From NCBI RefSeq assembly GCF_056712565.1, contig NZ_CM160072.1: a DNA stretch of 64,000 nt; one strand, given 5' to 3'. Made by a program: the position numbers and the translations under genes. The notes below the pieces were generated by a model. That model worked only from the letters and a program-made list of their open reading frames with translations. It did no database searches and was not told the DNA's origin. Each line of letters begins with the position of its first letter. Position 1 is the first letter of the stretch. Below are positions 62,136 to 62,441 of the stretch, piece after piece.

Positions 62136-62441
62136 ACTTTCTCCTGTTTACTATCTATAAGCCAGTCAATTATTGATGACTAACTTCGCATAGTAAACCA
62201 TATATGAATCATTATTGTTCCATATCATATATCTCAATAAAAGTACTAATGATTTTACAGAACGAGCCAGCAGAGTGAGGGCAGTTGTACAGGAACCATA
62301 GACTTAATTTTGTATTTAATAATGCTATGGTGTAATAAACCTGAACATGTATTTAAAATACGTACTGATTCATGATAGAATTCAAAGATAACTTTTCACA
62401 AACTCCGTTTTTGATACCCGCAAAATATTGCGGGCTTTTTT
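62136..62441 (-). promoter_or_regulatory. AT-rich non-coding spacer between tail fibre and lysis genes; likely lysis/late promoter region; contains hairpin CCCGCAAAATATTGCGGG plus T8 (62419..62441)
   Basis: No ORF of plausible size; AT-rich; hairpin flanked by T-run on plus strand and A-run on minus strand. Confidence 0.45.

Follow-up and report, generated by a model that had tools for sequence, protein, structure and literature searches.

At the end (about 59993-64000) of the 64,000-nt stretch of contig NZ_CM160072.1 analysed here (the window) lies the right end of a K1 prophage of Escherichia coli of the epsilon15-like (Uetakevirus) kind, and in it a gap of 306 bp (62136-62441) separates the endosialidase tailspike gene from a gp23-like gene, the first of the lysis cassette. 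We favour, with somewhat better than even confidence, the reading that this spacer is the gene-less version, in the K1 lineage, of a hypervariable slot between tailspike and lysis genes. It would then consist of two parts, namely a conserved leader of the lysis mRNA next to the gp23-like gene and a lineage-specific filler that ends in a one-way terminator next to the tailspike gene.

The gap is bounded by the tailspike stop codon TAA (62442-62444) and the ATG of the gp23-like gene (62133-62135), both on the minus strand. The preliminary description, which was made from the DNA letters alone, had presented it as a 306-bp AT-rich non-coding spacer among phage genes that are all on the minus strand, and its coordinates are exact. 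The GC content of the spacer is 31.7%, compared with 48% in the holin gene, 45% in the tailspike part and 46% in the phage part, there is no open reading frame (ORF) of 30 aa or more within the gap, and the ORF list and the annotation bear out that the minus strand holds every phage gene of the window. It was also essentially right that this is the only sizeable non-coding stretch of the phage part, the other one being about 127 bp from the Rz stop (60120) to the prophage end near 59993. The gene names, on the other hand, needed sharpening: what had been called a "tail fibre" proves to be the endosialidase tailspike, and the name "holin" refers to a gp23-like Phage_holin_8 protein that is followed by a Phage_holin_3_7 holin. 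The sole longer plus-strand ORF (54 aa, 62372-62536) passes through the terminator. A hidden gene was considered and rejected, since every ORF of at least 20 aa, on whichever strand, is short, has no ribosome-binding site (RBS) or crosses the terminator; a 43-aa plus-strand ORF, also without RBS, is open in 20 of 23 K1-type spacers, broken in the window and not conserved.

To describe the slot in related phages, we took from IMG/VR 80 loci whose gp23 protein has 92-99% identity with that of the window and recorded how far gp23 lies from the long ORF upstream of it. The gap between tailspike and gp23 was measurable in 77 of the 80 loci and ranged from 72 to 2125 bp; 11 related loci have only 72 bp between the two genes. 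The contents of the slot are diverse. In epsilon15, gp22 and gp21, which bring about serotype conversion, lie there on the opposite strand, as does the O-acetyltransferase gene oac in phiV10. Five further classes have opposite-strand Acyl_transf_3 genes, of which one is fused to an SGNH domain and one is split, and another class has a 69-aa ORF that looks by eye like the truncated N-terminus of an acyltransferase and has no Pfam match. In one group the slot contains an ORF of about 100 aa on the same strand, and many slot classes are non-coding, with lengths of 72-428 bp. The K1-type gap (305-308 bp) was measured in 13 IMG/VR loci and occurs in two more, L010 (inside a rearranged gap of 1317 bp) and L017 (at a contig end), and the spacer is present in 71 of 5426 complete E. 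coli genomes, including the K1 strains APEC O1 and CE10. It always adjoins an endosialidase gene, on the way to the putative holin, and is at least 97% identical throughout. Compared with what is expected of a moron, the K1 spacer occupies a variable site between two conserved late genes and has a terminator of its own; it has no protein-coding gene, and its putative promoter is only a consensus match.

Some K1-type copies are rearranged on the tailspike side. L010 (5596-6000) retains the K1 spacer together with the final 100-200 bp of the endosialidase gene, while the rest of the tailspike is replaced by unrelated phage DNA. In L084 (401-909, strain 23CRST038), the spacer and the end of the endosialidase gene are kept and the tailspike is cut by an IS3 element. 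In strain CUVET20-PYO2, the endosialidase gene is frameshifted.

The part of the slot that is common to all relatives is its last 75 nt or so (62133-62207), which in the alignment of all 28 distinct classes contain a near-palindrome, a hairpin, the RBS and the ATG. In the window, the near-palindrome (TCATATATGG here, CCATATATGG in most relatives; 62198-62207, minus strand) lies directly 5' of the leader hairpin (62146-62198, minus strand), which consists of a 9-bp lower stem, an internal loop and a 10-bp upper stem. The fold has -22.6 kcal/mol and a z-score of -5.1, and the RBS AGGAG (62141-62145) and the ATG of the gp23-like gene follow immediately 3' of it (together 62133-62145, minus strand). 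In a plain MAFFT alignment, 85.8% of the cells of the 26-pair helix form standard pairs, a value that falls to 37-52% once the 3' partners are displaced by 1-3 columns. Changes on both sides of a pair occur in 38 cells, compared with 19.8 ± 3.5 in shuffles, and none of 500 shuffles matched this number; an alignment fitted to a covariance model gave the same pairing picture. With the covariance model, epsilon15, ZX5 and the window each give a single copy, with sense scores of 64-96 bits (44.5 in the 72-bp class) and antisense scores of at most 32 bits. The sense fold is more stable than the antisense fold in 27 of the 28 classes, with means of -18.7 and -9.0 kcal/mol, an advantage that arises from G-U pairs. 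The compensating changes, the single sense-strand copy and the stability of the sense fold together indicate that the structure is selected as an RNA of the late strand, and neither as a DNA cruciform nor in a plus-strand RNA.

In most classes the stem has 20-25 bp; that of K1 has 9 + 10 bp, with an upper part that is unlike the other classes in sequence and retains the pairing. In most relatives, part of the GGTGG RBS is paired with the base of the stem, to which the 3' half of the near-palindrome contributes. The GenBank record of epsilon15 marks the equivalent hairpin as "RNaseIII", a predicted site, and the element is indeed a double-stranded RNA stem of about two helical turns that is conserved as a structure, as an RNase III site should be. 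By analogy, the role of the leader is most likely RNase III processing, stability or translation control of the first lysis gene. The preliminary description had overlooked this hairpin, which is the sole clearly constrained element of the gap. We regard it as a good candidate for a curated cis-regulatory RNA family, though not as a conceptual surprise.

The other end of the spacer carries an intrinsic terminator on the plus strand (62417-62443). Its stem CCCGCAA/TTGCGGG (62417-62423 and 62428-62434) encloses the loop AATA and is followed by a C and T8 (62436-62443), the last two T of which overlap the tailspike stop codon. The stem has seven perfect pairs, five of them G-C, with a loop of 4 nt, and the hairpin alone has -10.1 kcal/mol. 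Thus, the plus strand has what defines such a terminator, namely a G-C-rich stem of at least 5 bp with a short loop and at least six U right after it. On the minus strand, A8 precedes the same stem and UAUCAAAAAC comes after it, with two U in nine positions, so that the late strand lacks a proper U-tract. The preliminary description had noticed both the T8 of the plus strand and the poor U-tract of the minus strand, and both are seen in the sequence. Sites of such strength (at least seven perfect pairs, at least five G-C and at least seven T in eight) number four in the 64-kb window, compared with 0.04 ± 0.2 in 100 dinucleotide shuffles; with a looser definition terminators are not enriched (three found, 3.5 expected). 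The terminator-type signal is real, and it is polar for the plus strand only. When the slot classes were compared, the hairpins at this place were late-direction or bidirectional elsewhere, and only that of K1 is purely opposite-direction. The predicted terminator points along the transcription of the accessory genes inserted in the slot of relatives.

Among 23 K1-type spacers, the stem is invariant and the T-run varies from 7 to 9. The loop is AATA in 15 of them and TATT, its exact reverse complement, in the other 8, which resembles inversion of a loop in a perfect palindrome. An identical 24-nt terminator, ACCCGCAAAATATTGCGGGCTTTT, is found in an unrelated metagenome-assembled genome (MAG) of Clostridiales (JAISMM010000078.1; L110, 4076-4099) with no further similarity, and we take it as a coincidence, the convergence of a simple hairpin. 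With regard to the plus-strand RNA that could reach the terminator, read-through from the host was rejected as a source, because the yfgI/prophage junction has its own bidirectional terminator. The sole hint of a plus-strand transcription unit leading to the terminator is one promoter-like site (62352-62381), without an ORF.

The source of lysis transcription was approached through the repressor operators. The epsilon15 record marks "repressor" sites, ATTACC-N5-GGTAAT, before the terminase gene, gp3 and the tailspike gene and at the immunity region, and these equal the operator motif TTACC-N5-GGTAA used here. An unannotated perfect copy of this motif lies at 24704-24718 of epsilon15 (L107), 106-120 nt upstream of gp23, and an operator at a fixed position, -117 to -120 from gp23, is found in epsilon15 and in eight classes (L026, L053, L056, L059, L062, L064, L066 and L082), which comprise ones with an opposite-strand acyltransferase, one with a possible acyltransferase fragment and two others. 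The temperate phage vB_EcoP_ZX5 (ZX5), to which the region is 98.8% identical (98.8-99.6% over the prophage part), has operators before the terminase gene, the gp3-like gene and the tailspike gene (-119) and around the repressor gene. These positions suggest that every late gene block of these phages may be under direct repressor control. No operator was found in the spacer of ZX5 (5662-5967) or of the window, even when three mismatches in ten were allowed. In ZX5, repressor over-expression cuts the holin and lysin transcripts by more than 99.9% (PMC9782041). The lack of an operator in the spacer, the lack of a late-strand U-tract, the existence of 72-bp slots and the repressor effect in ZX5 are together best explained by read-through from the tailspike promoter. 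The K1 lysis genes are thus probably transcribed from this repressor-controlled promoter, which lies outside the window. Of the two suggestions in the preliminary description regarding transcription across the spacer, incomplete termination or processing of the late transcript survives in the form that passage of the hairpin is the likeliest outcome, since a stop on the minus strand is unlikely there, and a short plus-strand transcript survives as a plus-strand unit, past or present, which is reasonable in that it matches the direction of the inserts of relatives; both judgements come from comparison with related phages.

We therefore picture the working of the spacer as follows. The leader (62133-62207) would act as minus-strand RNA, as the 5' leader of the lysis-cassette mRNA, and late transcripts from the tailspike promoter would pass the terminator hairpin into the lysis genes. 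The terminator may be the surviving 3' signal of the plus-strand unit of the slot and would now serve, if at all, as a one-way insulator: it could halt, at the tailspike stop codon, plus-strand RNA from a residual or spurious promoter in the AT-rich DNA, so that antisense RNA would be kept out of the tailspike gene. Several points weigh against this picture. RNase III cleavage is a prediction carried over from the epsilon15 annotation, and the K1 stem is interrupted (9 + 10 bp) and, unlike that of the relatives, does not pair with the RBS. Two sigma-70-like sites, both consensus matches, lie on the minus strand of the spacer (62237-62208 and 62401-62372), and the former would start transcription just before the leader hairpin. 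The classes L040, L051 and L061, which have no operator, have late-direction terminator-like hairpins after the tailspike, so that some relatives must use another promoter or antitermination, and antitermination or an activator-dependent promoter may be an alternative also in K1. Moreover, the promoter under the -119 operator may be directed either to the lysis genes or to the inserted gene, and our literature search turned up no transcript maps and no mention of the spacer.

Among the alternatives, the preliminary description had suggested a promoter of the lysis cassette within the spacer. Transcription would then start just upstream of the leader hairpin, which would be a 5' stabiliser of the mRNA. 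The minus-strand site TTGAGA-N18-AATGAT (62237-62208) would give a start at about 62201-62203, 3-5 nt before the hairpin, in many relatives an AT-rich hexamer similar to a -10 element (TTTAAT, TATAAC or TATTAT) occurs 1-2 nt before the palindrome, and a separate promoter for lysis is needed in those relatives that combine an inserted gene with a terminator in the late direction. However, the DNA is AT-rich and the matches reach no more than 9 of 12. A conserved sigma-70 promoter upstream of the near-palindrome was rejected because no consistent -35 element is found across the classes, and in the 72-bp slot class any promoter would have to extend into the tailspike coding sequence. The spacer also has no operator, yet the lysis transcripts of ZX5 are controlled by the repressor, and a lysogen would presumably be harmed if its genes for holin, endolysin and spanin stood behind a promoter free of regulation. 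We thus regard a promoter of this kind as quite improbable. A somewhat better chance, though still a modest one, is given to the idea that the hairpin after the stop codon serves the tailspike mRNA, either by weak attenuation or by blocking 3' exonucleases, and so sets the ratio of tailspike to lysis proteins, in which case the T-run would be incidental (A8 after the stop codon in the late direction). Most slot classes of more than 200 bp have a stable hairpin right after the tailspike stop codon, regardless of what they contain, the minus-strand stem has 8 bp and about -15 kcal/mol with its flanks, and the whole minus-strand spacer RNA is unusually structured (z-score -3.0). On the other hand, termination is expected to be inefficient at the minus-strand tail UAUCAAAAAC, and an uninterrupted T8 beside a G-C-rich stem is the canonical signal of the other strand and very unlikely to arise by chance. 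Such a role for the tailspike mRNA is compatible with our favoured explanation, the gene-less slot.

A further alternative is a genuine small-RNA gene, made up of the promoter-like site and the terminator, whose RNA (62388-62443, about 56 nt) would be expressed by the prophage from the slot of the conversion genes. The hypothetical sigma-70 promoter, TTTAAA-N18-TAGAAT (62352-62381, plus strand) with TG at 62373-62374 as an extended -10 element, is the sole plus-strand promoter-like site of the spacer. The extended -10 (TG-n-TAGAAT, 62373-62381) lies 36 nt upstream of the strong terminator on the same strand, and the orientation is that of the inserted genes of relatives. The candidate 56-nt RNA, also hypothetical, folds with -12.7 kcal/mol and a z-score of -3.5, mostly due to the terminator, its single-stranded 5' part, U-rich stretch and U8 terminator resemble Hfq-type small RNAs, and the terminator stem is invariant and outlasts the loop inversion. 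These features are offset by others. Promoter-like matches are frequent in the 4-kb region (14 found, 6.1 expected), and from base composition we estimate a probability of about 0.1 that such a match falls by chance in the 150 nt before the terminator. The unit has no Rfam match, and literature searches gave no evidence of its expression. It is confined to one shallow lineage (at least 97% identity), so that its conservation is uninformative and does not qualify it as an Hfq-type small RNA. The body and the promoter are no less variable than the rest, with a common A/C polymorphism at 62400 and a change in the -35 element at 62355. The 23 K1 spacers have seven variable sites in the 90 nt of the candidate unit and 11 in the other 216, and selection on the candidate was rejected since it is not spared. 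We consider such a gene unlikely. The same doubt applies to the broader proposal that the K1 slot has been taken over by a protein-free unit of about 56 nt, expressed from the prophage with an extended -10 promoter and a U8 terminator of its own, whose RNA acts on host or phage mRNAs, and that, independently, the leader is a new, uncatalogued cis-regulatory family that governs lysis-gene expression across Uetakevirus. If this were true, the targets of the RNA could be, for example, the 3' end of the tailspike mRNA (antisense) or capsule-related genes.

Between the leader and the terminator, the filler (62208-62416) is AT-rich, non-coding and specific to the K1 lineage. No similarity to it was found outside the K1 epsilon15-like phages in phage, 5426 E. 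coli, IMG/VR and species-representative genome collections. A donor of the spacer was sought in the phage collection, the 5426 E. coli genomes, IMG/VR (with two patterns) and a collection of one genome per species, and these gave the same K1 lineage only, apart from the terminator of the Clostridiales MAG. A decayed remnant of a gene of relatives was rejected as well, because neither tblastn with all the ORFs of the slots nor blastn with short words for 62206-62441, both run against every locus collected, gave anything beyond chance. Phage CUS-3 was also rejected as the source; it has the C-terminus of the endosialidase in common, but neuO and a different AT-rich region without the hairpin follow downstream. 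A permissive Rfam search of 62050-62520 gave only sub-threshold matches driven by the terminator. The 306-bp gap has 18 variable sites among the 23 K1 spacers, compared with nine in 300 bp of each coding flank, which is about twice the density. The filler also contains an inverted repeat, ACCATAG (62295-62301) and CTATGGT (62325-62331), with arms of 7 bp that are 23 nt apart, and a near-palindrome, ATGTATTT-A-AAATACGT (62345-62363), that overlaps the -35 element of the plus-strand promoter-like site.

The neighbouring genes are those of the prophage end. The 3' part of the tailspike gene (62442-64000, minus strand, with the stop codon taken from the ORF list) runs off the window. It was identified through strain GPEC1337, which is 100% identical and in which RefSeq names the product an endosialidase catalytic beta-propeller domain-containing protein; the tail fiber gene of ZX5 has 3120 nt. 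On the other side, the gp23-like membrane protein, a putative holin (61731-62135, minus strand; Phage_holin_8, Pfam PF16931, E 9e-12), is the first gene of the lysis cassette. The rest of the cassette (59943-61744, minus strand) comprises a second holin (61436-61744, Phage_holin_3_7), a GH19 endolysin (about 60820-61446), an extra 74-aa ORF between endolysin and Rz, and Rz/Rz1 (60120-60602), all on the minus strand, and it ends in a bidirectional terminator at the prophage/yfgI junction (59943-59972) with T-runs on both strands. A stretch of some 250 bp from the GH19 endolysin to Rz (60604-60856), which codes for the 74-aa hypothetical protein, is missing in ZX5 and is present and annotated in GPEC1337, and it thus forms a small insertion within the lysis cassette.

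The prophage is integrated at the yfgI terminator. Its end near 59993 lies within or beside this bidirectional terminator, CCCTCTG-N6-CAGAGGG, and the attP region of ZX5 has a 93%-similar terminator, which suggests that the junction terminator is rebuilt on integration. GPEC1337 (L003) has the 100%-identical spacer in a copy in which the integrase gene directly follows Rz, as in the attP-intact order, and an Rz-yfgI junction at a second place of the genome; this could reflect tandem or double lysogeny or an assembled circular form. An Rfam scan of the whole window at the gathering threshold gave a sole match, naRNA4 at 11049-11130 (minus strand), a nucleoid-associated RNA derived from repetitive extragenic palindromes (REP) and unrelated to the spacer.

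The comparison explains the "wrong-way" terminator as a probable footprint of a known hot-spot of lysogenic conversion. Conversion genes alter the bacterial surface, as an O-antigen polymerase or inhibitor and O-acetyltransferases do, and the phages of the K1 capsule have none at this site. Moreover, a structured RNA leader precedes the lysis cassette in every relative examined, and an operator accompanies the leader where an opposite-strand gene interrupts the late operon; in three classes with the operator there is an apparent remnant or a short gap. These points bear on the control of lysis in widespread prophages of E. coli and Salmonella, though the architecture is an ordinary one for phages and should not surprise a phage biologist. 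The leader hairpin is suited to simple genetics in phage ZX5.

Hairpins that are processed by RNase III are known from the polycistronic mRNAs of phages, as the R sites of T7 and the N leader of lambda, in the latter of which the stem base pairs with the RBS and cleavage by RNase III relieves the inhibition of translation. The leader resembles these sites in being a long hairpin directly upstream of an RBS, in or at the start of a late transcript, and its relatives in Uetakevirus resemble the lambda N leader also in that part of the RBS is paired at the base of the stem. In contrast, it has no sequence similarity to the T7 and lambda sites and no Rfam family, and its cleavage is a predicted label. 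The terminator of the spacer is similar to those between convergent genes, such as that of the yfgI/prophage junction (59943-59972), in its G-C-rich 7-bp stem, 4-nt loop and T8 tail, but it is one-directional, and no annotated or predicted plus-strand gene converges on it. Prophage small RNAs such as IsrK of Gifsy-1 and DicF of Qin are likewise comparable as short units of a promoter-like site and a terminator in AT-rich accessory DNA, whereas the K1 unit is a candidate drawn from the DNA itself and has no Rfam match. Comparable, too, are the morons of Uetakevirus, gp21-gp22 of epsilon15 and oac of phiV10. The K1 spacer occupies the same site, from the tailspike stop codon to the gp23-like gene, its plus-strand signal is oriented as the inserted genes are, and its terminator abuts the tailspike stop codon. 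It differs in having no ORF, no similarity to the cassettes and not the -119 operator that accompanies them, and the hairpin of epsilon15 has its T-run in the late direction, that is, the opposite polarity. The slot and its conversion genes are known already from epsilon15 and phiV10, and the K1 spacer is a gene-less, operator-less member of this group in which the polarity of the terminator is reversed.

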